From: an uncultured Acidobacteriaceae bacterium | GTDB lineage: Bacteria; Acidobacteriota; Terriglobia; Terriglobales; Acidobacteriaceae | Assembly (NCBI GenBank): GCA_964246235.1 | Contig: CAXTPR010000010.1 | Location: forward strand, 1,946 to 65,945 | Direction: 5' to 3' | Length of the DNA stretch: 64,000 nucleotides | Part shown: piece after piece, positions 10,118-61,190 of the stretch | Numbering within the stretch: the stretch's first letter is position 1 | How the letters are laid out: the number at the start of each line of letters is the position of its first letter | Translations under genes and position numbers: made by a program | Notes under the pieces: model-generated | What the model saw: the letters and a program-made list of their open reading frames with translations, nothing else | Told to the model about the DNA's origin: nothing | Databases searched by the model: none

Positions 10118-10774
10118 TCACACTGCCGGTACGCTGACCTGCAGCATGCGCTTGAGACGGTTGATTTCGTTGAACTTGTACTGAAAGTACAGGCCGCCGA
10201 AGAAGAAGGTGAGGAAGCCGTCGAGGCGCAGGCCGATGGGCTCCGGGCCGTTGAAGTGGCGGAGCAGCTCAGTGCGGAAGACAAAGCGCGCGATCAGGCG
10301 AATCGTCCATGTGAGCAGCCCTACGGAGATCGAGTGCGGCACATACACGACTGGCGCCCCCCAGATCCAGTGGGCAACGCTGTGGTAGGTGCTCGACAGG
10401 GTGATCAGCGCCAGAACCCCTTCCGCGATGTAGAAGTACAGGGCCGTCGAGGCAGAGTCGATCTTTTTGAGCCAGGCCGACGTATAGATGTTCCAGCCGG
10501 TGAAGAACAGCCCTCCGGAAAGCACATCGGCCAGCAGTGCCGCCCACCACGGCAGGTCGGGCGGATCCGGATAAAGCGATGGGACGGCGCTGGAGACAGG
10601 CGGCTCCGCCACGGACGCCAGCGGGAAAAGCTGAGAGATGGGCAGCCACTCCGCCGCACCTTCGGCCTGCACAAGATCGTTGGTGACGATGTTGCCGGAA
10701 GCCATATACTGCTGGACCTGCTCCAGGGTATAGGGACCGAACACCTCGCCGTTGCGCGCGATGCGATATGTCAT
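10118..10774 (-). CDS. GYF_2 (DUF4339) domain membrane protein
   Basis: N-terminal YRIARNGEVFGPYT...DLV..EG..EWLPI GYF_2 pattern, then several TM segments ending FFFGGLYFQYKFNEI. Confidence 0.78.
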   Translation of the reverse strand: MTYRIARNGEVFGPYTLEQVQQYMASGNIVTNDLVQAEGAAEWLPISQLFPLASVAEPPVSSAVPSLYPDPPDLPWWAALLADVLSGGLFFTGWNIYTSAWLKKIDSASTALYFYIAEGVLALITLSSTYHSVAHWIWGAPVVYVPHSISVGLLTWTIRLIARFVFRTELLRHFNGPEPIGLRLDGFLTFFFGGLYFQYKFNEINRLKRMLQVSVPAV

Positions 10775-28078: not shown

Positions 28079-29815
28079 TTACAGCCGCCCCTCCGCCTTC
28101 ACCTGCAGGTACTTCCCGATCGCGTTCACCCCTGCTTCCTCCGCGCTGGTTTCCACGATCAGCACCCCCTGCCGCTCCAGCAGCGCCACCGTTTCGCGCC
28201 GACGCTCCAACATCTCCTGCGCCGCGGCGCTCACGTACATCTCGTCGCGCGTCGTCGGCACTCGCGCTGCCATGGTCTCCAGCTCCGGGTGTTTCAACAG
28301 CACCAGCACCACCAGATGCTGCCGCACCAGCTCCGCGGCCGCCGCCACGATCTCCGGCCGCCCCGCCTGGTCAGCCATCTCCGTCACCCACACGATCAGC
28401 CCCCGCCGCCGCTGCACGTTCCGCAGCCGCGCCATGGCCTGCAGGTGGTCCGCCTCCGCGCGCTCGCTCCGGGTGCGGCTCAGCAGGTCGATCATCATCC
28501 GCAGGTGCCCGGCCCCCTGGCCGGCCGGGAGCAGCTGCTGAATGCCACGCCCATAGGCCATCATCCCAACCTTGTCGCCGGACTGGTCGATCACCTGCGC
28601 CAGCATCGCCGCCGCCGTGGCTGCCTGATCCAGTTGCGTCACCGTGAGCCGGTGCGCCCGGTCGCGCTCCGCCTCGGTTTCCGCAACGAACTCGCCCCCG
28701 CCGCGCTTCAGCTCCAGCGCCGTGCCGCTCAGCCGGCCTGCATCGAGAACCACCCACACCTGCTGCGAGCGCTCCACCGTGAACTGCCGCGTCACCGGCT
28801 TTCCGCGCCGCGCCGTGGCCGTCCAGCTTACGTTGCGCAGCTCATCGCCAGGCTGGTAGTCGCGCAGGCTTTCGAAGTCGCGGCCCACGCCCCGCAGCCG
28901 CAGCCGCCGCTTCTCCTGCGCAATCTGCCGCGCCCGCTGCAGGAAGAACTGAGTCCGGTCGCGCGCCTCTTCGAGTGCCGGAAACACCCGCACCCGCTGG
29001 GCACGCGACGCCTGCCGCGCATACGCTTGCGCCACGGCGGCTGCTTCGGCCTTTCTGGCTCGCCTGTCCCACATCCAGAGGCACACCGCCGCCGCGACCA
29101 GCCCGGTCATCACCAGACCTTCAACCCAGGCATGGCGGACCCGGAGAAAACCCGTCAGCACGGCGGCGCAGGCCAGCACCACGCTCCCAGACCGCCGCAG
29201 GGCGCGTCCTCGCGACGTCTTCACCGGCTCGGCCGCGTGCAGGGGAGCTTCGGTCCGCGCGCCCGCACCGGGCGCGTTCACCGGCAGCGCCGCGCACCAG
29301 CGCTCGGCCAGCGCCCCGCGGTATCCTGCCCGGTACCGCAGGTACACCCTGCCCAGGGCGTGGTCGCCCCGCTCCCGAGGCCACACCGTCGTCACGCTCG
29401 CCACATCCTCGCGCGGGTACAGTGGGAGCCTCTGTTCGCGCGGCTTGCCCACCAGCGCGGCGTGCAGGTCATCCACACAGCGCAGGTCCAGCACGCTGTC
29501 GGCCTCCAGCCGCACCGTCAGCTCCACCCGCGTGTCTTGCCCCAGCTGCGGCGAATCCAGGAAGGCTCGCGTCACCGTAAGCCGTTCCGGCGCGGGCAGC
29601 CGCACAGCCTCGACGATCCAGATCAGTAGCAGCAGGCCATCCCACGCCGGCACAAACCAGATTGCCTGCGGGTGCCGAAATGCCGGAACCGCCATCAGGA
29701 ACCCCGCCGCGAACAGCCCCATCGCCAGTGGCGTCATCCCGAACCGCCACCACCGCCCGGCGCGGCCAATGGGCCGGGCCGTCGCACTTGCGGGTTGTGG
29801 GAGGAGGGTCTGCAT
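28079..29815 (-). CDS. DUF58 domain (MoxR-associated, vWA-like) protein with internal insertion
   Basis: PRERGDH.LG, GRDFESLRDYQPGDELRNVSWTATARRG, LDAGR MIDAS-like motif. ATG 29815 overlaps the upstream TGA (TGATG). Confidence 0.9.
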   Translation of the reverse strand: MQTLLPQPASATARPIGRAGRWWRFGMTPLAMGLFAAGFLMAVPAFRHPQAIWFVPAWDGLLLLIWIVEAVRLPAPERLTVTRAFLDSPQLGQDTRVELTVRLEADSVLDLRCVDDLHAALVGKPREQRLPLYPREDVASVTTVWPRERGDHALGRVYLRYRAGYRGALAERWCAALPVNAPGAGARTEAPLHAAEPVKTSRGRALRRSGSVVLACAAVLTGFLRVRHAWVEGLVMTGLVAAAVCLWMWDRRARKAEAAAVAQAYARQASRAQRVRVFPALEEARDRTQFFLQRARQIAQEKRRLRLRGVGRDFESLRDYQPGDELRNVSWTATARRGKPVTRQFTVERSQQVWVVLDAGRLSGTALELKRGGGEFVAETEAERDRAHRLTVTQLDQAATAAAMLAQVIDQSGDKVGMMAYGRGIQQLLPAGQGAGHLRMMIDLLSRTRSERAEADHLQAMARLRNVQRRRGLIVWVTEMADQAGRPEIVAAAAELVRQHLVVLVLLKHPELETMAARVPTTRDEMYVSAAAQEMLERRRETVALLERQGVLIVETSAEEAGVNAIGKYLQVKAEGRL

Positions 29816-30384
29816 CAGAGCTTTTTGTGCTCTTGAGTCAGCATTTCCGTAAGCATAAGTTGCGCTTGATTCTGTTCCCCTCGCGTTCCCATGAACCGGA
29901 CGGACCACCGTGCGTCCTTTGATCGGCAATCGAGGCTCATCGTGTGAAACCTCGCAAGACTTGTCTTGAAGCAAAGCAGCGGCTGCCCAGTGATGTCCAC
30001 GAAAGTGTCGTCCTCCGCAACTTCTTCGGTAGGCGAGACAGGCTCATGAATGTGCAGCCATCTTGCCTGGACATCTTGCACCCGTTCCGACGGCAGTTCC
30101 GATCTGCTGGCCGAGAACATCGCGTCGGGACGGACGAAGAAGGGAACTGGCTTTTCTACCGACAACTCATTTCCCCATCTCGCACTTGTCTGTGTCCATG
30201 CAAACGGAAGAGCAACGTGGAATGAATGCCAGCTTGCACTGCGGTGCGTCAGCCAGCGTAAGACGGACTGTAGATATGGCCATGCGCAAAGCAGAACGAG
30301 CGCACAACAAGGAAGTCCTACCAGCGCGGTAAGCGTCCTTCTACTGAGGGGCCGATGCCAGATGGATATGCTCGCTCGAGTCAT
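29815..30384 (-). CDS. Orphan hypothetical protein with N-terminal TM/signal, inside the MoxR operon
   Basis: 189-aa ORF starting 4 nt after the moxR stop and ending in a TGATG junction with DUF58; visibly more AT-rich than its flanks. Confidence 0.65.
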   Translation of the reverse strand: MTRASISIWHRPLSRRTLTALVGLPCCALVLLCAWPYLQSVLRWLTHRSASWHSFHVALPFAWTQTSARWGNELSVEKPVPFFVRPDAMFSASRSELPSERVQDVQARWLHIHEPVSPTEEVAEDDTFVDITGQPLLCFKTSLARFHTMSLDCRSKDARWSVRFMGTRGEQNQAQLMLTEMLTQEHKKL

Positions 30385-30388
30385 ACAC

Positions 30389-31420
30389 CTACTTGGGCAC
30401 CTGCACAGCCGCCAGAATATCCCGCACCACGCGGTCCGTATCGAACCCCTCCAACTCCGCCTCGGGCCGCAGCACCAGCCGATGCCGCAGCGCGGGTACG
30501 GCCGCTTCCTTCACGTCGTCGGGGATCACGAAGTCCCGCCCCTCGCGCGCCGCATAGCCCTTGGCGACAAGCAGAAGACTCGCCGCCGCGCGCGGGCTCG
30601 CTCCCAGGCTCACCGCCGGCCACTCCCGTGTGCGCCGGACGACGGCCAGCAGGTAGTCGAAGATCGCCGGCTCCATGCGCACCGCGCGAATCTCTGCGCG
30701 CGCTCGCACCAGTAGCTCGTACGCAACCGGCTCGATCGGCGTATCGGCTAATCCAGTTGCCGTATGCGCCGCATGGTGCCGCTCCAGTACTGTCCGCTCG
30801 TCCGCAAGCTCCGGATACCCGATCTTGATCTTCAGCAGAAAACGGTCGAGCTGCGCTTCCGGCAGCGGGTAGGTGCCTTCGAACTCCACCGGGTTCTGCG
30901 TCGCGAACACGGTGAACAGCGGATCGAGCGTGTGCGTCTCGCCATCGGCCGTCACCTGCCGCTCCTCCATGCTCTCCAGCAGCGCCGCCTGCGTGCGCGG
31001 CGGCATGCGGTTGATCTCATCGGCCAGCAGAAACTGCGTGAAAACCGGCCCCTTGTGAAACTCGAAGTCACCCGGCTTGTCCCCAAAGGGCGGCGAAAAC
31101 ACATTGGTGCCCAGAATGTCCGCCGGCATCATGTCCGGGGTGGCCTGCACACGGCGGTAATCCAGCGCCAGGAAGCGCGCCAGCGTCTTGACCGCGAGCG
31201 TCTTCGCCACCCCGGGAACGCCCTCCACCAGCGCATGCCCGCCACACAAGGTGGTCATCAGCGCCTGCGCCACGGCCTCTTCCTGCCCGGCGATCACGCG
31301 CCCGATCTGTTCCTGTCCGCGCGCGAAGAGCTCCGCCGCCGCACTGATCCCGGACACGGCCTCTGCCGCCTGCGTCGCAGCCCCGCTACCCTCCTGCTCT
31401 GCCACTCCCAACTCGCTCAT
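30389..31420 (-). CDS. moxR: MoxR family AAA+ ATPase
   Basis: GHALVEGVPGVAKT, LADEINRMPPRTQAALLESMEE, ATQNPVEFEGTYPLPEAQLDRF, GASPRA. Confidence 0.96.
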   Translation of the reverse strand: MSELGVAEQEGSGAATQAAEAVSGISAAAELFARGQEQIGRVIAGQEEAVAQALMTTLCGGHALVEGVPGVAKTLAVKTLARFLALDYRRVQATPDMMPADILGTNVFSPPFGDKPGDFEFHKGPVFTQFLLADEINRMPPRTQAALLESMEERQVTADGETHTLDPLFTVFATQNPVEFEGTYPLPEAQLDRFLLKIKIGYPELADERTVLERHHAAHTATGLADTPIEPVAYELLVRARAEIRAVRMEPAIFDYLLAVVRRTREWPAVSLGASPRAAASLLLVAKGYAAREGRDFVIPDDVKEAAVPALRHRLVLRPEAELEGFDTDRVVRDILAAVQVPK

Positions 31421-31421
31421 C

Positions 31422-32714
31422 TCACCTCTCAGCTCCCACCAGACGTTTGTCTTCTGCACTCGCAGCTTCCGCCTGCGCCCCGCTACCCGGTGTCCCTGTT
31501 CCAGACGTCAGCATCGCACGAAGCCGCTCCTCATCACTCGCCATCGCGCGCACCAGTCTCAGCGCATCGCCGGAAGACAGCGTTTCCCCACCCACTCCGC
31601 TTTCCGCCGAACGGGCCTGCTCCAGGTGAATTCTCAGCTCGTTCCAGCCGCCCGGCTCGCTCCCAAAGCGCATCGCCAGCGTCTCCACAATGGCATCCGC
31701 GCCGCCGCGCACCGTCTCTCGGCTCAGCCCCGCTTCGCTCATCAGCACGCGTTCCAGCCGACGTTGGGCCGCCTCGATCACGGGTTCCGTGGCCCGCGCT
31801 TTCGCGTAGAGACCTCCCATGCTCGCGGTAAACTCCACCGGCGACGAGCGTGGCACCGTCACCGGCATCCGCAGCGGTCCCTTGCGGCGGCTGAAGCTCC
31901 AGACCAGCAGCAGGAAAAGCAGAACGAACTGGGAGAACATTACCCACAGGGGCCGGGTATCGAAGCTCCCCGGAGCGGCCTTCGCGTGATCGCTGAAGCC
32001 GTATTCGTCGAAGAGCACCGCCCGGCCTTCACCTACGCTCGCCAGCAAGAGCCGCAGGTTCGCATCGCGCTTCAGCCCGGCGTTGGTCAGCGGAGTGGCC
32101 GAAGTCCACCACACCGCTTCGCCCGCGCCCACGGGGTACCGCACCACCACCGGCTTGCCCAGGCAGCGCTGCTCCACGCGAAATTGCGGCCCTTCCGAGG
32201 CCCAGGTGCCGGCGTACTCCATCTCCGCCGAGCCCGCCGCCGCCAGCTCGCCCGGGCCCTCCGGGGTGGTCTCGCAGGTGCCCGGCGCCAGCTTGCCGGG
32301 CGCGTCCGTCCTGCCGCCCGGCAGCAGGCTGGCGCGCCACGCGGAGCCGGTCAGCAGCACCCGGCCGCCGCGAGCCATGAACGAGTTCAACTCGGCTGCC
32401 AACGCCTGCCGGTCCTCCAGGGGAATGGTAGGCTCCGCCAGCACCAGCGTGGTATGCGCTGCGTCCAGCCGCGCCATGCGCGTGGTGGGCTCGTCCCAGC
32501 GCACCGCCGTCCTGCCCATCCCCTGCAGCGTAAGAAACGCTGCCCTTGCACCTTGCGGCCCGGTGTTGCTGGTCGTGGGGCGCTTGTCCTCTTCGGTTTG
32601 CCGTGGAGTGAACAGCGCGATCACCACGATCAAGGACACCACGCCGCCCAGGAGCCAGGCCAGCAGCTTGCGGTCGCCGTGAATATCCATCACGCTTGTG
32701 CCCGCCGCGCTCAT
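31422..32714 (-). CDS. DUF4350 domain-containing membrane protein
   Basis: N-terminal TM, NTGPQGARAAF, GEAVW...LTN, VLFDEY, C-terminal TM and RSSPVEF; lies upstream of moxR. Confidence 0.8.
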   Translation of the reverse strand: MSAAGTSVMDIHGDRKLLAWLLGGVVSLIVVIALFTPRQTEEDKRPTTSNTGPQGARAAFLTLQGMGRTAVRWDEPTTRMARLDAAHTTLVLAEPTIPLEDRQALAAELNSFMARGGRVLLTGSAWRASLLPGGRTDAPGKLAPGTCETTPEGPGELAAAGSAEMEYAGTWASEGPQFRVEQRCLGKPVVVRYPVGAGEAVWWTSATPLTNAGLKRDANLRLLLASVGEGRAVLFDEYGFSDHAKAAPGSFDTRPLWVMFSQFVLLFLLLVWSFSRRKGPLRMPVTVPRSSPVEFTASMGGLYAKARATEPVIEAAQRRLERVLMSEAGLSRETVRGGADAIVETLAMRFGSEPGGWNELRIHLEQARSAESGVGGETLSSGDALRLVRAMASDEERLRAMLTSGTGTPGSGAQAEAASAEDKRLVGAER

Positions 32715-33790
32715 GCCCGCTCGCTCGCTCCTGTACCAGGCAGCAGCTCGCTTCGCAGCCCGGTGCCAGCCGAACCGGAGGAGCCGTCTCCCGTCTCGCT
32801 CAGCCGCTCAAACCAACGTCGCGCACGCAGGTAGTCTGCCGCCTCCGCGGGCCGTAGACCATACCACACCCGCTCCAGCAGGCTCGTCAGGCTGCCCAGC
32901 GACTCCCGCTGCGGTGATCCCGGCTGCAGCAGCCGGACGTACTCCCGCGGTGTCCGCGCCGGATTGTGCCGCCACGCGCGACGGCCCTCCAGGCGCACGA
33001 TCGCCGCCCAGTACAGGCAGTGCACCGCCTCGCGCCACTCTCCGGCGCGGCTCGCCTGCTCGGCCAGCGTCGCCCAGTCCGTCGCCTCCCGGTCCCAGGC
33101 TCCCAGCTTTGCCTGGTCGCCGCGCAGGGTCGCTGCAAGCCGCTGCCGCTGGAAGTTTCTCCGCACATAAAACAGCAGGCCCAACGCCGTACCCAGGAAG
33201 AATATCCACTCCATGGCTACACCGATCCACGGTGCGCGGGTGCCCAGCTGGCCTACACCCGCAAACAACCTCCCGATGGCTCGCCAGAACCTGGCCACCA
33301 GCCGGTCCCACCACGAGGGCGGTGCCACGGCGCCGAACTCCGGCCTTGCCAGAACACCGTCCGCGGTGGAGCGTGCTTTGCGAAAGTCTGTTGCCGGATC
33401 CCGCTCCGGCCCCGCGATCTTGCGGTCGATCTCCCCCAGCCGAGCCGCGCTTGCGTCCATGGCGCGTTGCCGGTCGTCCGGTTTGGCCGTCCTCGCTGTC
33501 TCCAGTGCCTCGCGAAGCCAATCCCACCGCATGGCGAAGCTGGGCCGCGCGCCGTCCGCTGCCACGGTCCCATCGGCAGGGGCATTCGCCGCTTTGCAAA
33601 CGCTGGCTGCGGAGGCACACCCGCGCACGACATCCTGCATCTGCGCGATCTCAGCGCGCAGGTCGGCCCGCGATCGCTCCTGCACCTGGCCCATGCAGGG
33701 CAGCAGGTATGCCGCCAGGAGTGCAAGTACCGGCACCGCGTTGTGCGAGCGTGGACGTCGCGCGCTGCCATGGGAAATCCGTCGCGTCAT
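32711..33790 (-). CDS. DUF4129 domain-containing protein
   Basis: GEWREAVHCLYWAAIVRLE, RTPREY, LERVWYG C-terminal motif and a central TM. Confidence 0.82.
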   Translation of the reverse strand: MTRRISHGSARRPRSHNAVPVLALLAAYLLPCMGQVQERSRADLRAEIAQMQDVVRGCASAASVCKAANAPADGTVAADGARPSFAMRWDWLREALETARTAKPDDRQRAMDASAARLGEIDRKIAGPERDPATDFRKARSTADGVLARPEFGAVAPPSWWDRLVARFWRAIGRLFAGVGQLGTRAPWIGVAMEWIFFLGTALGLLFYVRRNFQRQRLAATLRGDQAKLGAWDREATDWATLAEQASRAGEWREAVHCLYWAAIVRLEGRRAWRHNPARTPREYVRLLQPGSPQRESLGSLTSLLERVWYGLRPAEAADYLRARRWFERLSETGDGSSGSAGTGLRSELLPGTGASERA

Positions 33791-39474: not shown

Positions 39475-40512
39475 TTACCTTGCTGACTTTTTCGCCGCCT
39501 TGTGTAGCGGCGTCGAGGCAGACTTGCGGTCTTCCTGCGCCGTGGCTCCGGGGCTATCCGGCGTGCTGCCCTGAAAGCGCGAGTGGTGGCCGTCGTTCGG
39601 CTGAAGCGGTGAGATACCACCCTTCTTCATCAACTCCGCAGCGATCTGGTAGATCTCCTCAGGAGCATAGTCAGGCGAGAACAGTGTGGGGCAGTCGCCG
39701 ATCACTGGACCTTCCGCCGCATACTCCGGTGCGCCCTGGATGACTTCCAGCGGCTCGCCGTCGGCCCAATCGGCCGGTCCGGACCAAACGCCAGCCACAT
39801 CCCCATAGTCGGTATCGGAGAACGTGTACAGCTTGCGGTGGCTGCCGATGGCCTGCCACTTGCGGGCCTCGGGAATTTTCGCGTCGTCGATGTTGGGAGT
39901 GGGCAGCATCTTGGTGACTTCCACGCCGGTGATCTTGCGCAAGGCCAGGGCATAGGCGGCCTGGTGAACGCCGCCGCGCACCATCAGGTAGCCGATCACG
40001 TTGCGGGCTGCCGCGTTGGTCGTCATCTGGTAGCAGCGATGCTTGTGCAGGCGCGCGCCTGTTTCCAGGAAGAAGTTATGCAGCAGATCGGTAACCAGGT
40101 TGCCGGATGAAAAGACATCCTTACCCGTCCAGAAGTGGCCCATAGAGTCCATGACCTGATGTCCGCCGCCGCCAACAATGGTGTGGTGGGTGTTGCGAAG
40201 GTTGGCAGCTGCCTGCAACGGCGCATCCACCGGCTCGCCTTCCGGTACGGAGCCTTCGAGCATCAGGTTGATCGCAGTGGAGATCAGCTCCACGTGGCCC
40301 AGCTCTTCGGCCGTAATCGATGCGATCAGGTCGTAGAACGGCTTCAGCTTCTTCTTCTCTTTGAAGCCGAACGACTGGTGCAGGTAGTTGTTCAGCGTAG
40401 ACATCTCGCCGAACTTGCCGCCCAGCAGCTCCTGGATAGCGGCGGCTCCATTCGGGTCAGGGCTGGCGGGCTTTTCTAACGGAATCAGCAATTTTTCAGA
40501 ACGAAAGAACAT
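39475..40512 (-). CDS. Manganese catalase family protein
   Basis: GGKFGEMST, AEELGHVE, NFFLETGAR, RGGVHQ: di-Mn ligand motifs. Confidence 0.93.
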   Translation of the reverse strand: MFFRSEKLLIPLEKPASPDPNGAAAIQELLGGKFGEMSTLNNYLHQSFGFKEKKKLKPFYDLIASITAEELGHVELISTAINLMLEGSVPEGEPVDAPLQAAANLRNTHHTIVGGGGHQVMDSMGHFWTGKDVFSSGNLVTDLLHNFFLETGARLHKHRCYQMTTNAAARNVIGYLMVRGGVHQAAYALALRKITGVEVTKMLPTPNIDDAKIPEARKWQAIGSHRKLYTFSDTDYGDVAGVWSGPADWADGEPLEVIQGAPEYAAEGPVIGDCPTLFSPDYAPEEIYQIAAELMKKGGISPLQPNDGHHSRFQGSTPDSPGATAQEDRKSASTPLHKAAKKSAR

Positions 40513-40927
40513 GAGTACCCCAAAATCCATCGGGTGAGCGTGCTTTGAGAGAGGTGCCCGAGACCACGCAGGCCTCCAAGGGCAAGACAGTTGTATGAGG
40601 TGCGATGCGAAGCGGAGAGCAGATGGACGTACAGGTGCCCGACTCCGTTTTCATGCTGCGCACGTAGCTTCTGCCCTCAAAGACCATTCGTTCCTCGCTG
40701 ACAAGCGCCGAAGGCCGCGCTTGCTCCGCATGCAGGTGCGTCGTAGAGTTCCTGTGCGGGCTCCGCTGAGGGCAATCGCAGCCAACTACGATGGCGACGC
40801 TCTCACCTTCCGATCCGGAAGCGCACAGCTTCTTCGGACACTTCAGGAAGGTGCGCGGTGTATACCCGGAACTCGATCGCAACCCAAATCCTCCCGTACT
40901 GACCTTCCGAAAGTGTCTGCTTCATTG

Positions 40928-40990
40928 TCCTGCACCCTAAGCCCTGCACCCTAAGCCCTGCGCCCTAAGCCCTGCACCCTATACCCTATC
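40928..40990. repeat. Heptamer tandem array (9 units, CCCTgca/CCCTaag)
   Basis: TCCTGCA CCCTAAG CCCTGCA CCCTAAG CCCTGCG CCCTAAG CCCTGCA CCCTATA CCCTATC. Confidence 0.9.
40982..40987 (+). promoter_or_regulatory. Putative -10 (TACCCT) 6 nt before ATG, embedded in the heptamer array
   Basis: TACCCT-ATCCCC-ATG(40994), with no SD. Confidence 0.5.
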
Positions 40991-40993
40991 CCC

Positions 40994-42322
40994 ATGCGCT
41001 ACGGTTTCTGGCTCCCCGTCTTTGGCGGCTGGCTTCGCAACATCGACGACGAAGGCATGCCCGCCACCTGGGAGTACACTCGCACGCTTGCTGAGCAGGC
41101 CGAGGCCCTCGGTTACGACCTTACCCTTATCGCCGAGCTCAATCTCAACGACATCAAGGGTCCGCAGGCCGACTCGCTCGACGCCTGGAGCACTGCCGCC
41201 GCGCTCGCAGCGGTGACGAAGAAGATCGAGTTGATGGTCGCCGTGCGGCCCACGTTCCACAACCCCGCCGTGCTCGCCAAGCAAGCCGCCAATATCGACC
41301 GCATCAGCGGCGGTCGCCTCACCCTCAATGTGGTCAGCTCCTGGTGGCGCGACGAGGCCCTCAAGTATGGCATCCCCTTCGACGAGCACGACGACCGCTA
41401 CGCCCGCACTTCCGAGTGGCTCGACGTGCTCGATGGCTGCTGGAAGCAGCAGGGCATGTCCCACCAGGGCCGCTTCTATGACGTGCGGGAAAACATCCTT
41501 GCCCCCAAGCCGTTCCCTCACCGCACCTACTCCGGCGCGCCACCCGCCGACGATCCCGAGTCCGAAAAACCAGGCTATTTTCCCGACTCCGAGCCGTTCT
41601 CGGGAGGCTGGAATGCGCCCGACCCCGGCGTGCCGCACCCCGCCCCGCCGGCCGATGCCGAATCCGAGAAGCCGAGCTACTTCCCCGACTCGGAGCCCTT
41701 CAGCGGGGCCTGGAACACTCCGGATCCGGGCGCTTCCTCCACGCGCGCTTCAAGCCTTCAGTTAGCCGCGTCTCCTCGGAATCGTCGGAACTCCGGCAGC
41801 CGCTACCCCGCCGGCCGTCCCACGCTCTATGCCGGCGGCGAATCCGAAACCGCCAAGAACCTCATCGCCGCCAAGTGTGACGCTTACCTCATGCATGGCG
41901 ACGACCCCCGCACCATCGCCGCCAAGGTCGAAGACATGAAGCAGCGCCGTGCCCGGCATCCCGAGCTCCCGTCGATGCTCTTCGGCGTCACCGGTTACTG
42001 CATCGTGCGCGACTCACAAGGCGAAGCCGAACGTGAGGTTGAGCGCATCACCGCCGCGCCCGACCCGGGCACATCACCCGCCGGCTTCGCCAACTTCGAG
42101 CAGTGGACCACCGGTTCGCAGCTGGAAAAGAAGCTCAGCCTGCGCGACTACTCGGTCTCGAACCGCGGTCTGCAATCCGGCCTGATCGGCACGCCGGAGA
42201 CCGTAAGGCAACGCCTCGCCGACTTCGAAGCCGCCGGCTGCTCGCTTGTTTTGCTGCAGAGCTCGCCTCAGCATGAGGAGATGGCCCGCTTTGCCAAGCA
42301 GGTGATGACTCCAAGCAGGTGA
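40994..42322 (+). CDS. LLM-class flavin-dependent monooxygenase (SsuD/SfnG-like) with about 100-aa internal insertion
   Basis: YGFWLPVFGG, DAWSTAAALAAVT, AVRP, NIDRISGGRLTLNVV, RPTLYAGGES, GLIGTPE. Confidence 0.92.
   Translation: MRYGFWLPVFGGWLRNIDDEGMPATWEYTRTLAEQAEALGYDLTLIAELNLNDIKGPQADSLDAWSTAAALAAVTKKIELMVAVRPTFHNPAVLAKQAANIDRISGGRLTLNVVSSWWRDEALKYGIPFDEHDDRYARTSEWLDVLDGCWKQQGMSHQGRFYDVRENILAPKPFPHRTYSGAPPADDPESEKPGYFPDSEPFSGGWNAPDPGVPHPAPPADAESEKPSYFPDSEPFSGAWNTPDPGASSTRASSLQLAASPRNRRNSGSRYPAGRPTLYAGGESETAKNLIAAKCDAYLMHGDDPRTIAAKVEDMKQRRARHPELPSMLFGVTGYCIVRDSQGEAEREVERITAAPDPGTSPAGFANFEQWTTGSQLEKKLSLRDYSVSNRGLQSGLIGTPETVRQRLADFEAAGCSLVLLQSSPQHEEMARFAKQVMTPSR
41540..41731 (+). repeat. 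Intragenic duplicated 29-30 aa peptide
   Basis: PPADDPESEKPGYFPDSEPFSGGWNAPDPG (41540-41629) and PPADAESEKPSYFPDSEPFSGAWNTPDPG (41645-41731). Confidence 0.92.
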
Positions 42323-43874: not shown

Positions 43875-44345
43875 TCAATCCGCGATTCCCGGGTCGGGCG
43901 TATCCCGGCCGAGCGCCGTCGCCAGGGCATTCAGGTGGTCCTGCTCGTCGCGCAGGATCTCGCGTAAGTCTTCGCTCAGCGCAAACTCATTCAGCGCGTC
44001 GGCCTGCTTGACGCGGCGGCGATAATTCGCGATCGTCACCCGCTCATTCTCAAGATCGAATTCCAGCATGTCGGTTGCCTTCTCGCTGGTCTTCACTTCC
44101 TTCGGCGTCACTGCCGGCATGCCGCCCAGCAGATCGACCCAGTAGCTGATGGTGAGCGCGTGCTTGAGCTCTTCCTTGGCGTGCACCTTGAGCTCGTCGG
44201 CGATGTTCATGTACTCCGCGCCCTTGAGCACCTGCGAGTAGTTCACGTACGCGATGATGGCCTGGTACTCGCGCTCGAGGTCCTGGTTGAGAAGGTCAAT
44301 GAGTTGTTCCTTGGTGGTGGTCGGGGCGATTTCTGAGCTTGCCAT
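43875..44345 (-). CDS. Ferritin-like (bacterioferritin-like) di-iron protein
   Basis: LNQDLEREYQAI, EELKHA, LENE, DEQDH four-helix ligand pattern. Confidence 0.87.
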   Translation of the reverse strand: MASSEIAPTTTKEQLIDLLNQDLEREYQAIIAYVNYSQVLKGAEYMNIADELKVHAKEELKHALTISYWVDLLGGMPAVTPKEVKTSEKATDMLEFDLENERVTIANYRRRVKQADALNEFALSEDLREILRDEQDHLNALATALGRDTPDPGIAD

Positions 44346-44412
44346 GATTGCTACTTGTCCTTTCAGCGTCTGCTGGTTGTTCTCTTTAGGATGCAGACCG
44401 GGTCTCCCGGCT

Positions 44413-46257
44413 TCAGCGCCGCAGCAGCAACACCGCCGCCGAGCCGAAGACGGCCAGTCCCACCGTGAGCCAGGCGACGTAGTCCCCGGGATGCCCGCTC
44501 TGAAAAGCGCGCAGAGGCCGCAGCCGGCCCTCCAGAAAGGGACCCAGCCGCAGCCGACGCTGCAGCCGGTTGCGGAACACAGACGTACACGCGAGGGCAA
44601 AGGCCGCCATCAGCGCAACAGTGGAGTGCAGTGCAGCGGAAGGCACGGCTTCGCGCCAGCCAGGCTGCGTGAGCGGTACGCCTTGGCCGGCGTACACGGT
44701 GTGCAGGTACGCCGGCTGGCTCGCCAGGACCGCTGCCGCGTCGCGTAGCACCGGCAGCCACCCGGGCAGAAACGACAGCGCGATCCCAGCCAGCACGCAG
44801 AAGGCGGCAGGCAGGAAGTGGAACGGGTAGATCTTCGTGTCGCGAGCTCCATCCTCCGGTCGTTCTCCCACCTCGGCCGCGGCGTCGGTGAGGGGTCCAT
44901 CGCCCCAGCCCAGGAACGTGCTCATGCCCGTGCGCAGCACGGCAGCCGCGGTCATCATGCCGCCGAAGAAGAACAGCGCCGACACGCCATGCACACCGTT
45001 TCGTTCCGCCGCGTGCTCGGCGCCGGCAGTAGCCAGCAGCAGTGCAGACCCCGGCACTCCCGCCAGGCCGGCCGCGCCGAGAAACCACAGCAGGCCCACC
45101 CAGGGCAGCTCGCGCCCGCGGCGGTACAGCTGCCTCTCGGTCACCGTCCGCAGCCGATGCAGCAGCATGCCCGTCACAAAAAAAAGGCCGCCCTTGATCA
45201 GTGCATGGGCGAGCAGGTACAGAAGCATGGCCGCAATCGCCAGCGGTCCGCCGATGCTGAACGTCAGCAGCATCAGACCCGCGTGGCAGATCGTGCTGAA
45301 CGCCAACAGGCGCTTGAGATGATGTTCCGCGTAGCACATGATCCCGCCCAGGACCACGGTCACCGCCGCAAACGCATACAGCATTCCACGCGCGGCCAGG
45401 GGGTGCCATGCCAGGCACTGCGCAAAAATCGTGGTGTGCAGCCGCACGATGGCATACAGGCCAAGCTCCACCATGATCCCGCTGAACAGGACACACACCG
45501 GTGTGGGCGCGACGGCGTGCGCATCCGGCAGCCACAGGTGGAACGGGGCGATCGCCCCTTTGACAAGGAATCCACAGGTGAGCAGCGTAAACGCAAACAG
45601 AACCAATGGATCGTGCCGCGCGCCCCCGCCCGCACCGAGGCTCAGGCCGATCTGCGCCATGTTCAGTGCGCCGGTCATCGCGTACAGCAGTGCGATGCCC
45701 GTGAGCACCAGGAACGCGGCCACCGTGTTGGTCACCGCGAAGTTGAGGCTGCCCTGCAGCGGCGAAGGCTCCGCGGTCTTCAACCCGCACAGCGCGAACG
45801 CGGCGGTGCTCATCAGCTCGAAGAAGACGAACATGTTGAACAGGTCGCCGGTCAGCACGAACCCCGACATGGCGGCGAGAAACACCAGCATCAGCGGCTG
45901 GTAATGGCCTTGTCCGCAATCGACAAATCGCCAGCTGAAGACGAGGGCCAGCACGGTCAGCAGGGCCGCCAGCGTGGCCAGCCCGGCGCCGATGGGCTCG
46001 ACCACAAACGAGATGCCCAGCACCATCGAGCCGCGTGGGTACCAGTTGCCGAACCAGTAGGTGAAGGCTCCATGTGAGGCGCGCGTCAACAGAAGCGAAG
46101 CTGTTAAGAGGTTCAACGCAACGAAAAAAATGGCTGCCGAGTCCATCGCCGCACGGCTCAGCCATTTGCGGAACGCGGAGAGCAGGGCCGCGCCGAGCAG
46201 CGGCACAGCGACCGGCGCACCCGGCAGCAGGCCCGTGACATGCGCGAGGCTCGGCAT
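44413..46257 (-). CDS. mrpD: Antiporter-like proton-conducting subunit (MrpD/MbhH-type)
   Basis: GDLFNMFVFFELM, VKGAIAPFHLWLPDAHAVAPTPV, LKRLLAFS, AHALIKGGLF. Confidence 0.88.
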   Translation of the reverse strand: MPSLAHVTGLLPGAPVAVPLLGAALLSAFRKWLSRAAMDSAAIFFVALNLLTASLLLTRASHGAFTYWFGNWYPRGSMVLGISFVVEPIGAGLATLAALLTVLALVFSWRFVDCGQGHYQPLMLVFLAAMSGFVLTGDLFNMFVFFELMSTAAFALCGLKTAEPSPLQGSLNFAVTNTVAAFLVLTGIALLYAMTGALNMAQIGLSLGAGGGARHDPLVLFAFTLLTCGFLVKGAIAPFHLWLPDAHAVAPTPVCVLFSGIMVELGLYAIVRLHTTIFAQCLAWHPLAARGMLYAFAAVTVVLGGIMCYAEHHLKRLLAFSTICHAGLMLLTFSIGGPLAIAAMLLYLLAHALIKGGLFFVTGMLLHRLRTVTERQLYRRGRELPWVGLLWFLGAAGLAGVPGSALLLATAGAEHAAERNGVHGVSALFFFGGMMTAAAVLRTGMSTFLGWGDGPLTDAAAEVGERPEDGARDTKIYPFHFLPAAFCVLAGIALSFLPGWLPVLRDAAAVLASQPAYLHTVYAGQGVPLTQPGWREAVPSAALHSTVALMAAFALACTSVFRNRLQRRLRLGPFLEGRLRPLRAFQSGHPGDYVAWLTVGLAVFGSAAVLLLRR

Positions 46258-50149: not shown

Positions 50150-50710
50150 TCAGGGCTGGCTGGATTGGGAAGCAGGCGTTGCCGCCGCGGTCCGCAGATA
50201 GAGCGTGGGACCGCGCAGGAAGTCGGTGGTGCCTCCCGCTACGCCTCCCGCGGCGAGCCCCAGAACCCCGCCCCCCAGCGTGTAGACATCACGGGTGAGA
50301 TCGGAGAAGTCGAGGAATGCGTGCGGCTCTGGCGGAGCCTCGACGTGGCCCACGATCGCCCCCACTGCCAGGCCGGTGCCGAGGCCGATTCCCATGCCCA
50401 CCAGGGCTGAACGCAGGGGCCGCGTCCGCTTGACGCTCCTCACCTCTGTGCGCGGGAAGGTGTACTGAGTATGACCGCTGCTGCACAGCAGCGCTTCGTC
50501 CGTCACGGACTCCAGCACGCATTTCCTGCTCATTCTGTCGCCTGCGACGTGTACTTTGGTGCGGGGCGGCAGGCGCTTGGGGGCAGATTCGAGCTGCTCC
50601 CAGTTGCTCCCGGGAGCAGGCCGTTGCGCGGCCAGCGGAGAAAGCGAGGACGCGCACAGGGCGAGAGCGAGAAAGGGCGCGCAGCGGAGGCGGCGAGATG
50701 TGCAGAGCAT
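50150..50710 (-). CDS. Hypothetical exported/membrane protein
   Basis: Signal-like N-terminus, Sm-like beta segment, and C-terminal glycine-zipper TMs (GIGLGTGLAVGAIVG). Confidence 0.65.
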   Translation of the reverse strand: MLCTSRRLRCAPFLALALCASSLSPLAAQRPAPGSNWEQLESAPKRLPPRTKVHVAGDRMSRKCVLESVTDEALLCSSGHTQYTFPRTEVRSVKRTRPLRSALVGMGIGLGTGLAVGAIVGHVEAPPEPHAFLDFSDLTRDVYTLGGGVLGLAAGGVAGGTTDFLRGPTLYLRTAAATPASQSSQP

Positions 50711-50857
50711 GGCAAAAGCTCCTGTTCGAACGACCTGCCGATCAGACCACGCCCGCGAAGCGTACGCATCCCTCATTTGAGGGAATCGATGGTGAGGATG
50801 ACCTCCCTACGCAGTATGCCGGGAAGCGTGCGCGTTGTTCGTACAATAGGAAGCACT

Positions 50858-52714
50858 GTGACACTCGACTTTTTAGGAACACGGGAGCGTACGCACGTCT
50901 GCGGTGAGCTCCGCACCGCCGACGCCGGCACCGTCGTAACGCTCATGGGGTGGGTCAACCGCCGCCGCGATCACGGGAATCTCATCTTCTTGGACCTCCG
51001 CGACCGCTCCGGCATCACGCAGGTGGTGTTTGACAAGGAAGCTTCGCCCGAGGCCCACGCCAGGGCAGAAGCGGCGCGGCCCGAGTATGTGGTTGCGGTC
51101 ACCGGCAAGGTGCGCGTGCGCGGCGCGGGTTTGGCCAACCCCAACATGGAAACGGGCGAGATCGAAGTGGTTGCTTCCGAAGCCCTGCTGCTGAACGATG
51201 CGAAGACCCCGCCGTTTTCTCCCGCCGAAGACACCGTCGCCAACGAGGAAGTGCGCCTGGCCTACCGCTATCTCGACCTGCGCCGCGCCGAGATGCAGAA
51301 GAACTTCGCTCTGCGCAGCCGCGTGGCCATGGCGATCCGCAACTTCCTCGTCGAGCAGGGCTTCCTGGAGATAGAAACGCCCTTCATGACGCGATCGACA
51401 CCCGAAGGGGCAAGGGACTACCTGGTGCCCAGCCGCGTGCACCCGGGTCAGTTCTATGCGCTGCCGCAGTCGCCCCAGATATTCAAACAGATCCTCATGA
51501 TCTCGGGCTTCGACCGCTACTTCCAGATCGCCCGCTGCTTCCGCGACGAAGACCTCCGAGCCGACCGCCAGCCGGAGTTCACGCAGATCGATCTGGAGAT
51601 GACCTTCCCGCAGCAAGGCACTGTTTTTCGCGTCGTGGAAGGCTTCCTGCGCGCCGCCTTTGCTGCCGCCGGGGTCACGCTGCCCGAAGGCGCGTTCCAC
51701 CAGATGACCTACGATCAAGCCATCGCGAAGTATGGCATCGATAAGCCGGACATGCGGCTGCCGGCGATGGTGGACCTTTCGCAGGTGCTCACCCCCGAGC
51801 TGCGGGAGACGCTTAAGATCGACCCCATGCTGCCGGTTTACGGCTTCACCATTCCCAGAGCGGGTGTGATGAGTGGGACGCAGAAGCGCAGCTTCGTTGA
51901 CGACATACGCAACGGCTTCGGGGATTGCGGCCTCGATTTCCTCGATGTCGCGCGCCTCCGCACCAACCAGGCGTTCCTTCCACTTGCGGAAGCCATCGCC
52001 GCCAAGCTCACTGCCGAGCAGATGGTGTTCAACGGCGAGAACTTCACGACCGAAGACCTCGCCGTCGTGATCACGCCCAAGCCCGGCACGGCCGTCCTGT
52101 GGAACAACGACCGGCAATGGATTCCCAAGCGCGTCGGTTCGCTGCGGCTGGAGCTGGCGAAGAAGTTTGCCGACAAGCACGGCCTTTTCATCCCAGCCAA
52201 CACCGCTGCCGACTTCAAGTTCCTTTGGGTGACCGACTTCCCCATGTACGAGTGGAACGAGGAAGGGGAGCGCTGGGACGCCGCGCACCATCCCTTCACC
52301 TCGCCGCATGAGGACGACATCAAGAGCGGCGCGCTTTACAACGACAAAGGCGCGGTGCGCGCGCTGGCCTATGACATCGTGCTCAACGGAACCGAACTCG
52401 GCTCCGGCTCCATCCGCATCCATCGCCAGGACGTGCAGGCCGAGATCTTCCGCACACTCGGCATGACGGATGAAGAAGCCCGCGAACGTTTCGGCTTCTT
52501 CCTGCAGGCGCTGGAGTACGGCACGCCCCCGCACGGCGGCATCGCGCTCGGCCTGGACCGCATTGTGATGATTCTTGCTGGCGCCCAGAGCCTGCGCGAA
52601 GTCATCGCCTTCCCCAAGACGGCCAGGGCCATCGACCTGATGGTCGATGCGCCCACGCCGGTCAGCGAGGGGCAGTTGCGCGAGCTGAACCTGCGCATCG
52701 CGCACCGGAGTTGA
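50858..52714 (+). CDS. aspS: Aspartate--tRNA ligase (possibly non-discriminating)
   Basis: GTG start; RTHVCGEL, RRDHG, STPEGARDY, PQSPQIFKQ, FRDEDLRADRQPEFTQID, PPHGGIALGLDR. His in RRDHG is the residue associated with non-discriminating enzymes. Confidence 0.98.
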   Translation: MTLDFLGTRERTHVCGELRTADAGTVVTLMGWVNRRRDHGNLIFLDLRDRSGITQVVFDKEASPEAHARAEAARPEYVVAVTGKVRVRGAGLANPNMETGEIEVVASEALLLNDAKTPPFSPAEDTVANEEVRLAYRYLDLRRAEMQKNFALRSRVAMAIRNFLVEQGFLEIETPFMTRSTPEGARDYLVPSRVHPGQFYALPQSPQIFKQILMISGFDRYFQIARCFRDEDLRADRQPEFTQIDLEMTFPQQGTVFRVVEGFLRAAFAAAGVTLPEGAFHQMTYDQAIAKYGIDKPDMRLPAMVDLSQVLTPELRETLKIDPMLPVYGFTIPRAGVMSGTQKRSFVDDIRNGFGDCGLDFLDVARLRTNQAFLPLAEAIAAKLTAEQMVFNGENFTTEDLAVVITPKPGTAVLWNNDRQWIPKRVGSLRLELAKKFADKHGLFIPANTAADFKFLWVTDFPMYEWNEEGERWDAAHHPFTSPHEDDIKSGALYNDKGAVRALAYDIVLNGTELGSGSIRIHRQDVQAEIFRTLGMTDEEARERFGFFLQALEYGTPPHGGIALGLDRIVMILAGAQSLREVIAFPKTARAIDLMVDAPTPVSEGQLRELNLRIAHRS

Positions 52715-53561: not shown

Positions 53562-54164
53562 ATGAAGATTCTGCACCTCGATTCCAGCGTGACCGGCGAG
53601 AAGTCCGTCAGCCGTCCGCTCACCCAGGAAGCCGCCGGGAAGCTCAAGGCGCTCTATCCGGACGCGGAGTATGTGTATCGCGACCTGATCAAAGAGCCGC
53701 TTCGTCACTACACGGCCGTAGTCCGCTTCTACGGTAAGGACGAAACGAACCTGACAGCCGAGCAGAAGCGGGAACTGGCCACGGGCGAGGAACTCCTGCA
53801 GGAGTTCCGCAGCGCCGATGTGGTGCTTATCGGCGCACCCATGTACAACTTCGGCATCCCGTCTCAACTCAAAGCCTGGATCGATCATCTCGCCGTGCCT
53901 GGTGTCGCTTTCCGGTACGGGGCTAACGGCCCGGAGGGTCTCTTCGGCGGGAAGCGCATCATTGTCATCAGCTCGCGAGGTGGCCTTTATGGCCCGGGTT
54001 CACCCACGCAAACCTGGGATCACCAGGAAGCCTACCTGCGCCAGGTCTTCCAGTTTTTCGGCATTACGGATATCACGGTGATCACGGCGGAAGGCGTTGG
54101 CTCCCCGGCGAACCGCGACAAAGCCATCGCCGACGCGAAGGAAAAGATCGTCGCGCTCAAATAG
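53562..54164 (+). CDS. azoR: FMN-dependent NADH-azoreductase
   Basis: ILHLDSS...SVSR, APMYNFGIPSQLKAWID, SRGG, EAYLR.VF.FFG. Confidence 0.95.
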   Translation: MKILHLDSSVTGEKSVSRPLTQEAAGKLKALYPDAEYVYRDLIKEPLRHYTAVVRFYGKDETNLTAEQKRELATGEELLQEFRSADVVLIGAPMYNFGIPSQLKAWIDHLAVPGVAFRYGANGPEGLFGGKRIIVISSRGGLYGPGSPTQTWDHQEAYLRQVFQFFGITDITVITAEGVGSPANRDKAIADAKEKIVALK

Positions 54165-59806: not shown

Positions 59807-61072
59807 TCAGTACTTCGGAAGGCTGGTGTCGATCCTCTCGGCCCAGGCGGTAATTCCACCCGCAAGGTTCGAGACGTGCGTAAAGCCAGCCTGCTTGAGT
59901 GCGAGCGCGGCCTTTTGCGAGCGGCCGCCGGACTTGCAGTGGACCACGATCTCCGTGTCTTTGCCCACCGGGATCTCACCGACGCGGGCAGGCAGCTCGC
60001 CCACAGGGAGAAGCGGCGCGCCCAGATTCACAATCGCGTACTCGTGGGGCTCGCGCACATCCAGAACGTAGGGAGGCTTGTTTTCACCGCGTGCGGCGGC
60101 GTCAAGACGGGCCTTCAACTGCTCCGCTGACATCTGCGGTATGCCGTCCACTTCCGGCAGATCTTGGTTGTTCATGTCGTGTGAGCTTACCTCAAGCGGC
60201 CCCGTGCCGGTGGGCGGCGCGATGCCGCAGAACTGGTTGTAATCGATCAGCTCGGTGATCTCGCGCGTGCCGCAGGCGGGGCACTCGGGGTTCTTGCGCA
60301 GCTTGAGGGTACGGAAGCCCATGCCGAGCGCATCGACCAGGAGTAGACGGCCGATCAGGGGCTCGCCTATGCCGAGGATCAGCTTGATCACTTCGGTGGC
60401 CTGGATGACGCCAACCAGCCCGGGCAGGATGCCCAGCACGCCTCCCTCCGCGCAGCTCGGCACCAGGCCCGGCGGTGGCGGCTCGGGATAAAGGCAGCGG
60501 TAGCACGGTCCCTGCTCGGTGGCGAATACGCTGGCCTGGCCTTCGAAGCGGAAGATGCTGCCATAGGCGTTCGGCTTGCCGGTGAGGACGCAGGCGTCGT
60601 TGACCAGGTAGCGGGTCTGGAAGTTGTCGGTGCCGTCGGCGATGACGTCGTAATCGCGGAAGATCTCGAGCGCATTGGCCGAAGTCAGCATGGTGTTGTG
60701 CTTCACGACCTTCACGTTCTTGTTGAGGCCCTTGAGCATCTGCTCCGCGGAATCGACTTTCAGCTGACCGACCGTGGCTTGCGAGTGGATAATCTGCCGC
60801 TGCAGATTCGACTCGTCCACCACGTCGAAGTCGACCAGGCCGATGGTGCCGACGCCCGCTGCGGTGAGATACAGCGCGAGCGGCGCACCCAGTCCACCCG
60901 TGCCCACGCAGAGCACCTTGGCGGCCTTGAGCTTCTGCTGGCCTTCCATGCCCACTTCCGGAAGGATCAGGTGGCGCGAGTAGCGGGCAATCTCCTCATG
61001 GCTAAGGCGAGGAAGCTGGTCCGGTGCGACGGTGACAGGCAGCTCGGCGGTACGTTCTTCGGTTGCGGTCAT
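59807..61072 (-). CDS. moeB: MoeB/MoeZ-type adenylyltransferase with C-terminal rhodanese
   Basis: RYSRHLILPEVG, VGTGGLG, SNLQRQ, DGTDNF, CYRC, CAEGGVLG, CPAC; rhodanese HCKSGGRS. Confidence 0.96.
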   Translation of the reverse strand: MTATEERTAELPVTVAPDQLPRLSHEEIARYSRHLILPEVGMEGQQKLKAAKVLCVGTGGLGAPLALYLTAAGVGTIGLVDFDVVDESNLQRQIIHSQATVGQLKVDSAEQMLKGLNKNVKVVKHNTMLTSANALEIFRDYDVIADGTDNFQTRYLVNDACVLTGKPNAYGSIFRFEGQASVFATEQGPCYRCLYPEPPPPGLVPSCAEGGVLGILPGLVGVIQATEVIKLILGIGEPLIGRLLLVDALGMGFRTLKLRKNPECPACGTREITELIDYNQFCGIAPPTGTGPLEVSSHDMNNQDLPEVDGIPQMSAEQLKARLDAAARGENKPPYVLDVREPHEYAIVNLGAPLLPVGELPARVGEIPVGKDTEIVVHCKSGGRSQKAALALKQAGFTHVSNLAGGITAWAERIDTSLPKY

Positions 61073-61190
61073 GATCTGTCTCCATAGAGAAGATGCGGAG
61101 AAGCGCCGGAGAGATGCGGCCAGGGAGAAACCAGGAGAAAGGCGCCGCAGGCGGATGGTACAGTGCTTTGGACCCGTAAGGAGACGTTCA

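Follow-up and report, generated by a model that had tools for sequence, protein, structure and literature searches.

Host enzyme and anatomy of the loop insertion

A 64-kb stretch of DNA from an uncultured soil Acidobacteriaceae bacterium (contig CAXTPR010000010.1; "the window" hereafter) encodes, at 40994..42322 on the + strand (stop codon included), a 442-residue luciferase-like monooxygenase of the class C, SsuD/SfnG type that depends on reduced flavin mononucleotide (FMNH2) and carries a long loop insertion with two copies of a peptide motif. An earlier note, made from the letters of this DNA, had placed a recoded tandem repeat in a TIM-barrel loop of a flavin monooxygenase, and both Pfam and the alignment to the solved relative 3RAO bear this placement out. 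The protein matches PF00296 (Bac_luciferase; E = 4.8e-56, 190.8 bits versus a gathering cut-off of 27.9) in two stretches, with the insert between them. Its best NCBIfam model is SfnG (TIGR04021), at 200.2 bits under an equivalog cut-off of 382.95, a score lowered by the insert, which splits the match; the SsuD model (TIGR03565) yields 145.8 bits under a cut-off of 518.2. The closest PDB entry is 3RAO, a luciferase-like monooxygenase of Bacillus cereus (E = 2.4e-113, 383 bits, ~42% core identity), and bona fide SfnG (8T0U) is a far weaker match at 141 bits. SsuD 8VW6 is also among the closest solved structures, with SfnG 8T0U and MsuD/SsuD more distant. Foldseek with the predicted model recovered 3RAO (E = 2.7e-32, template-modelling score 0.74–0.76, target-normalised) together with 8VW6, 7JV3 and 8T0U, and the model displays the fold of class C two-component FMN monooxygenases: a (β/α)8 barrel, the hairpin of insertion region 2 (IR-2) and a lid, superposable on the solved members. 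Because the scores fall under the equivalog cut-offs of both SfnG and SsuD, a class-level name is used: by its sequence the enzyme is assigned to the SsuD/SfnG-class (class C) two-component FMNH2-dependent monooxygenases, any narrower substrate assignment being tentative. In itself the enzyme is a typical representative of its known family.

The gene can be divided into two barrel parts and the insertion that separates them, all read on the + strand. As delimited by structure alignment and AlphaFold2 (AF2), the N-terminal barrel part (aa 1–180; 40994..41533) ends with an IR-2-type β-hairpin (GRFYDVRENILAPKPFPHRTYS). It is followed by the lineage-specific insertion (aa 181–274, 94 aa; 41534..41815), identified by ortholog comparison and predicted to be disordered from AF2 and composition. 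Within it lie repeat unit 1 (aa 182–212; 41537..41629; APPADDPESEKPGYFPDSEPFSGGWNAPDPG) with a constrained 24-aa core at 41558–41629, a poorly conserved spacer VPHP (41630..41641; TPNP in the ortholog described below), repeat unit 2 (aa 217–246; 41642..41731; APPADAESEKPSYFPDSEPFSGAWNTPDPG) with its constrained 24-aa core at 41660–41731, and a Ser/Arg-rich basic tail (aa 247–274; 41732..41815; net charge +5). The C-terminal barrel part (aa 275–442; 41816..42319) opens with the core strand RPTLYAGGES and includes the presumed lid (~aa 355–395). The large insertion between LAPKP and RPTLYAGGES thus stands as first described, but its size had been put at ~100 codons and the net gain over orthologs is smaller, ~87 aa relative to the nearest insert-free ones (RTYS-RAPEGLT-RPTLY, a 7-aa loop). 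Relative to 3RAO the gain is ~92–95 aa, the equivalents of LAPKPFP and LYAGGES being ~5 residues apart there and ~100 here.

The two copies share the loop consensus ESEKP[GS]YFPDSEPFSG[GA]WN[AT]PDPG, and the consensus across copies is ESEKPGYFPDSEPFSGAWNTPDPG. Copy 1 (aa 189–212; nt 41558–41629) and copy 2 (aa 223–246; nt 41660–41731) agree at 21/24 residues, the replacements being G/S, G/A and A/T; at the identical residues the same codon is used in 7/21 cases and a different one in 14/21 (e.g., Ser TCG versus AGC). These counts, reported before, were reproduced in full. With a 1-aa indel the unit reaches upstream (APPADD-P / APPADA) to ~31 aa and recurs every 34 aa; the 31-mer unit peptide is APPADDPESEKPGYFPDSEPFSGAWNTPDPG, and tblastn recovers unit 2 at 84% identity over 31 aa (E = 1e-15). 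Proline (20%), serine (15%), alanine (13%) and glycine (10%) dominate the insert. Each motif copy has a net charge of −4, five prolines and four aromatic residues, and the insert as a whole is built of opposite charge blocks, −11 in the repeat segment and +5 in the Ser/Arg-rich tail. In the ortholog P0002 the tail is not conserved in sequence, yet it is again Ser-rich and basic (+3). The insert reads through in an intact frame, with a GC content at third codon positions (GC3) of 0.77, typical of coding sequence (core, 0.83).

Tests for several classes of inserted or repeated sequence were negative for this segment. Scanned against Pfam with E values as high as 10 admitted, the insert matched no family and no Hint/intein domain, and direct reading of the insert boundaries disclosed no splice junction of the Cys/Ser/Thr + HN type. 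Tandem Repeats Finder (minimum score 30) reported no DNA-level repeat, the copies being 72% identical as DNA, and a recent slippage-type tandem repeat was rejected since no head-to-tail DNA repeat was detected. Rfam gave no match for the insert, and its predicted RNA fold is not a significant hairpin (z = −1.22; 29/200 shuffles fold equally well). With these three tests negative, a role of the repeat as DNA or RNA was rejected: there is no DNA- or RNA-level explanation of it.

The AF2 model was built with 112 homologs, of which two informative alignment rows cover the insert. The barrel is modelled mostly confidently, and the mean predicted local distance difference test score (pLDDT) of 67 is lowered by the insert: aa 188–269 carry no secondary structure at pLDDT 34–44, a region covered by only two sequences. 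A core strand follows at 277–281, and pLDDT is low again at 362–391, in the lid region. The insert is predicted to be disordered; AF2 is weak evidence on this point, and the proline-rich composition agrees with it. Query residues 2–173 align to SfnG 8T0U through the end of the IR-2 β-hairpin, and the insertion therefore lies directly after IR-2, ahead of strand 277–281. The dimer interface of Pseudomonas fluorescens SfnG is built partly from IR-2, and so is its tetramer interface, which is electrostatic; the active-site lid is IR-3, which in SsuD is the element contacted by the reductase (PMC11588060). From TIM-barrel topology we infer that the insertion would project from the barrel face away from the FMN site, near the subunit interfaces.

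Independent assemblies support the insert. Contigs of an independent public run (X1), ~99% identical to the window, cover 41129–41623 and 41682–41975 and hence both copies, and the ortholog P0002 (444 aa, same architecture) was assembled independently twice, in an ENA/NCBI metagenome-assembled genome (MAG) and in Logan. Since these assemblies agree, the insert is not an assembly artefact, a possibility that the earlier note had raised and that they contradict. Nothing was found in favour of an assembly or annotation error, the nearest to it being that the X1 contigs are interrupted between the copies (41624–41681), where depth is low; with the frame intact and the GC3 ordinary, we consider such an error practically out of the question.

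Constraint on the repeat peptide and its distribution

To compare constraint along the gene, the window gene was set codon by codon against L001, the gene of P0002 from an uncultured Acidobacteriaceae MAG. The two 24-codon repeat cores gave an omega (dN/dS) of ~0.03, with 22 synonymous and 6 non-synonymous differences (p = 4e-10 versus neutrality), in an estimate that comprises two genes, four copies and 48 codons. The catalytic core evolves at an omega of 0.11–0.15 (proportion of synonymous differences, pS, 0.41). The linkers, at 0.39, do not differ from neutral, and the tail (aa 247–275), at 0.50, does not reject neutrality (p = 0.19). In the two orthologs the repeats therefore form a conserved island beside fast-evolving sequence, the cores at 0.03 versus 0.39–0.50 for linkers and tail. 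All four known copies are invariant at 21/24 core positions (22/32 aligned columns), and both proteins carry two copies at the same positions. These comparisons indicate that the peptide is under strong purifying selection and its flanks are not, in keeping with the selection on the peptide that had been proposed before any ortholog was compared.

The same pattern separates the two copies inside the window gene, where pS is 0.93 and the corresponding non-synonymous proportion (pN) is 0.10 (p = 6e-7). The copies differ at 20/72 nucleotides, 15 of them at third codon positions; in 100,000 simulations of 20 random substitutions, none left three or fewer amino-acid changes (mean, 12.7). Identical codons number 7, against 10.5 ± 2.1 expected for independent draws from the window's codon usage. 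Given this count and a pS of 0.93, synonymous sites between the copies are fully saturated. The proposal of an old duplication rather than recent slippage holds up against the high pS and the lack of a repeat detectable by Tandem Repeats Finder, and the sequences support a duplication that is old and that selection on the peptide has maintained.

Synonymous divergence in the repeats exceeds that of the core (Fisher p = 0.004). Selection for recoding was considered as a source of this excess and not adopted, the weaker codon bias of the insert (GC3 0.77 versus 0.83) being the likeliest cause. Open reading frames (ORFs) overlapping the repeat exist at 40979–41638 (−) and 41328–41765 (+); they were rejected as the cause of the constraint because synonymous sites of the main frame vary freely.

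The core divergence between the window protein and P0002 (pN 0.071, pS 0.41) is matched by that to P0003 and P0006, which lack the motif repeat (pN 0.059–0.062), and the core pS of all pairs lies at 0.40–0.58, near saturation. By these values, the insert has been retained by two lineages whose mutual divergence is as large as their divergence from lineages without it. Dating the insertion from core dS was rejected, as the values are near saturation and a single gain is indistinguishable from a gain followed by losses.

Searches at the protein and DNA levels returned the motif from one further protein. Of the more than 8000 homologs from a collection of 5.8 billion proteins, the best 120 contain a single carrier, P0002; it scores 864 bits and the next match 712, and any further carriers would thus have come first in the ranking. 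A degenerate back-translation of FPDxEPFSGxWN, run against 185,579 GTDB species genomes, found only the P0002 contig. A looser DNA pattern gave a single out-of-frame chance match in JGI metagenomes, within a low-GC AraD-like gene, and no match in IMG/VR. A hidden Markov model of the four copies (32 positions) had zero matches among 1.84 billion protein cluster representatives, a search that motif-bearing proteins standing under 50% cluster representatives without the motif would escape. The window itself contains no further copy at either the peptide or the DNA level. A word-index protein search with the 68-aa insert was uninformative: it returned one unscored candidate and missed the insert's own protein, and its negatives are thus untrustworthy for low-complexity, Pro-rich queries. 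The motif had been called unrecognised, and it indeed has neither a Pfam match nor a counterpart among the 1.84e9 cluster representatives; the question of whether it also occurs alone or in other proteins is answered by the P0002 ortholog and nothing else in the collections searched. On these searches the motif appears extremely restricted, to two known lineages.

The loop in relatives and the gene neighbourhood

Orthologs from Acidobacteriaceae (P0002–P0120) have cores 83–91% identical to the window protein, and their loop from RTYS to RPTLYAGG has anywhere between 6 and 98 residues. The 7-residue loop RAPEGLT prevails among the nearest relatives, and at least five unrelated insert types recur in this loop among the orthologs (LSSRPERSxVERPA, VILSxAxSxxSKDP, GAPSSPTASSSxKVGS, GFSPLN..GFSPG, LIPNPxSLIP and others). 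Ortholog sequences thus mark the loop as a strong insertion hot spot and a permissive site across the family. A loop this variable that is also a target of palindromic elements, together with a motif present in two sequences, lowers the generality of the motif. A second ortholog, ~86% identical as DNA, was noted in the same public run X1 (contig record 2, spanning window 41110–42307); the loop is shorter by 291 nt, 51 nt standing in its stead, and both loop variants therefore occur in one sample.

At the DNA level, the recurring inserts of the orthologs are mobile palindromic repeats, resembling repetitive extragenic palindromic (REP) sequences or MITEs (transposable elements of the miniature inverted-repeat type), inserted in frame. 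In one relative (L005; 8125–8180 and 9048–9122), parts of the insert element recur in downstream intergenic DNA. In another, a complete 4.9-Mb genome (L006), a 57-nt element sits in frame twice, once within the loop of the monooxygenase and once within a GlmS-like gene of 686 aa (10616–10672 and 17967–18023; 86% identical; peptide ..PGA[PS]SSP..S.SVRVGSS). The GlmS-like product of a third (L007; 11258–13327) carries a ELSSRPEQSEVERPA-type element. In-frame intragenic REPs and insertions of Rickettsia palindromic elements (RPEs) are a documented phenomenon (PMC3733652); our literature search found no description of such in-frame insertions for Acidobacteria.

The L006 pair serves as a neutral control and contrasts with the window repeat: its copies differ at 8 nt, and an amino acid is changed in 5 codons. 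The window repeat also departs from REP, RPE and MITE elements in other respects. It is not multi-copy DNA in the 64-kb window or in the GTDB, JGI and IMG/VR pattern searches, its hairpin is not significant (z = −1.22), and its copies show an excess of synonymous change (14 synonymous and 3 replacement codons), the opposite of the L006 control. Local DNA alignment of the window insert with the inserts of L005–L007, on both strands, was no better than with shuffles; descent of the window insert from the relatives' REP-like elements was accordingly rejected as detectable homology.

Pfam annotation of the neighbourhood covered 39 of the 47 candidate ORFs of the window, the other eight being short; five of those scanned had no match. 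The monooxygenase neighbours a Mn catalase, HisS, a ferritin-like protein and an Mrp antiporter. The Mn catalase (39475–40530, −) adjoins it divergently, a pairing kept in the relative L011, and the ferritin/Dps-like gene (43875–44600, −) lies just past HisS. JGI annotates orthologs of the enzyme as 'dimethylsulfone monooxygenase'; the context of Mn catalase and ferritin, one of oxidative stress rather than sulfur assimilation, casts doubt on this label. A MoxR-type operon (28079–33790, −; DUF58, AAA_3 ATPase, DUF4350, DUF4129) lies ~7 kb upstream of the monooxygenase, and L005 and L006 have the same operon about as far away, which speaks for orthology and synteny across Acidobacteriaceae; its DUF58 protein has 631 aa in the window and 519 aa in L006. 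The only candidate flavin reductase in the window is a 200-aa Flavodoxin_2/NADPH-dependent FMN reductase-like protein (53562–54164, +). Elsewhere, an aspartyl-tRNA synthetase ORF (50471–52714, +; 747 aa) has its OB domain from residue 156, pointing to a mis-called start or a long N-terminal extension, and a ThiF-rhodanese fusion resembling the MoeZ/MoeB sulfur-carrier activating enzymes (59807–61363, −) lies near the window end.

A candidate peptide ligand and its place among known systems

The reading we favour, while stopping short of calling it probable, is that the insert holds a lineage-restricted, selectively maintained, bivalent short linear motif (SLiM) in a predicted disordered loop and acts as a peptide ligand. 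The insert would be an intrinsically disordered loop with two sequence-specific linear motifs followed by a basic, fast-evolving tail. Acidic residues would frame the aromatic and proline side chains with which either copy engages a pocket, located on a different protein or on an adjacent subunit of the enzyme's own oligomer. With two copies in every chain, hence at least four per oligomer, avidity could increase. Probably the insertion originated where the enzyme accepts foreign in-frame DNA and acquires it time and again, and was then kept because the peptide had gained a function. We infer the binding function from composition and conservation pattern only: four aromatics and five prolines strictly conserved, spacers free to vary, a duplication, and exposure off the catalytic surface make a ligand a plausible, if still tentative, reading. 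Distinctly unlikely, in our view, is a bolder version in which the loop serves as a nursery, where palindromic-repeat or other DNA was duplicated in one lineage and turned into a constrained bivalent ligand. Under that version a functional linear motif would have been born de novo within a bacterial enzyme and might draw the monooxygenase into a complex or assembly specific to the lineage.

Several observations weigh against a ligand. Equally close insert-free orthologs (P0006, P0013 and others) evidently work, and the insert is therefore not needed for catalysis. No partner gene is conserved beside the monooxygenase in both loci, and the absence of the motif from every other protein and genome searched means that there is no co-varying partner family and no transferable function. 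AF2 does not dock the motif on the barrel, although coverage by two sequences makes this weak either way. The motif carriers are two sequences with four copies, so the selection estimate comprises 48 codons.

The closest rival, itself unlikely, takes the motifs as a structural element, ordered on the IR-2 hairpin or across the dimer or tetramer interface and altering or stabilising quaternary structure. The insertion directly follows the equivalent of IR-2, which takes part in both SfnG interfaces; the constraint on the motif equals that on the catalytic core; and the pairing of acidic repeats with a basic tail suggests self-association by charge, much as the tetramer interface of SfnG is electrostatic. 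Against this, AF2 leaves the insert unstructured and undocked at pLDDT 34–44, in a monomer model with two informative sequences, and close insert-free orthologs have identical interface-forming core sequences. Docking of the partner flavin reductase, or targeting to a protein compartment, is improbable. Two-component monooxygenases can contact their reductases, but the contact mapped in SsuD is the lid (IR-3) and not the insert loop (PMC11588060). The candidate reductase at 53562–54164 is 11 kb off and not in an operon with the monooxygenase, and insert-free orthologs need the same reductase. The scanned window ORFs include no encapsulin or bacterial microcompartment shell genes, and the motif is not known to resemble any targeting peptide.

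A substrate for modification or a regulatory site (Ser/Thr/Tyr phosphorylation), or else a low-affinity cation-binding acidic patch, has an equally low probability. Conserved in each motif are S, S, S, Y and T, set among acidic residues and prolines and probably exposed. Pfam nevertheless finds no kinase, ATP-grasp or other modifying enzyme adjacent to the gene or elsewhere in the scanned window ORFs, the motif has neither His nor Cys, and a modification site alone would not require 21/24 invariant positions including four aromatics. The earlier note had suggested reductase docking, metal binding and modification by a nearby ATP-grasp enzyme; no ATP-grasp enzyme was found by Pfam in the 39 ORFs, no flavin reductase is adjacent, and none of its specific partner ideas gained support. 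Very improbable, finally, is that the insert is a non-functional passenger, an in-frame remnant of a REP-, MITE- or RPE-like repeat or junk tolerated by the loop. Such a view draws on the unrelated REP-like families (at least five) in the same loop of orthologs, on the recurrence of REP-like elements in intergenic DNA and inside a GlmS-like gene, and on the intragenic REPs and Rickettsia RPEs already documented (PMC3733652). It is contradicted by copy differences that are overwhelmingly synonymous, opposite to the L006 REP control, by searches of the window, GTDB, JGI and IMG/VR that gave no further DNA copy, by the absence of a significant hairpin, and by the lack of DNA similarity to the REP-derived inserts of L005–L007. 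As a description of the present day it is largely refuted, and a REP origin with later exaptation is compatible with the data.

Loops that tolerate insertions, REPs inserted in frame and linear motifs in disordered regions are each familiar kinds of feature. New here is an orphan motif constrained like the catalytic core, in a loop where relatives hold neutral junk. If it is a true interaction module, it would illustrate how bacteria add a selectable peptide ligand to an old housekeeping enzyme by way of a permissive loop. Eukaryotic SLiMs are thought to originate likewise, and bacterial cases are rarely documented. The 24-mer peptide would then be a handle for fishing an unknown partner in a poorly studied phylum. 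These implications are bounded by the two lineages that carry the motif, by an enzyme that functions without the insert in close relatives, and by a role that is proposed from sequence. Independently of them, the insert marks a place in class C flavin monooxygenases where ~90 extra residues are tolerated, which is useful for protein engineering.

Among known systems, the closest for the host protein are the class C monooxygenases (3RAO; SsuD 8VW6 and 1M41; MsuD 7JV3; SfnG 8T0U), which have the same fold, insertion regions, IR-2 and lid. The solved relatives have ~5 residues where the window protein has 94, and the scanned ORFs around the window gene make up no sulfur-assimilation operon. The likeness to multi-core precursors of ribosomally synthesised and post-translationally modified peptides is superficial: the tandem near-identical peptide units with variable spacers are shared, but here the units lie within a conserved enzyme, with no leader and no flanking maturase, protease or radical S-adenosylmethionine genes.

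Rickettsia palindromic elements (Ogata et al. 2002, as cited in PMC3733652) and intragenic REPs provide a nearer parallel. Here too, short foreign in-frame segments occupy surface loops of housekeeping enzymes and leave these intact, as orthologs display at the same loop. The window repeat differs in that it is not multi-copy DNA, is not significantly palindromic and is conserved as peptide rather than DNA. Peptides derived from RPEs and REPs are regarded as unconstrained passengers, unlike the window repeat.

SLiMs of bacteria are exemplified by the microdomains of the RNase E C-terminal half and the acidic C-terminal tip DDDIPF of SSB. Those motifs have known partners and lie in terminal tails, whereas the window motif is internal to a barrel loop and known from two sequences. 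Its D-S-E-P-F resembles D-D-I-P-F superficially only, the SSB tip needing a free C-terminus. SLiMs are conserved islands of 10–25 aa, rich in acidic, aromatic and proline residues, often repeated for avidity and often confined to a lineage, features that the window motif shares; the fast-evolving sequence around such islands is disordered, as is predicted for the window insert.

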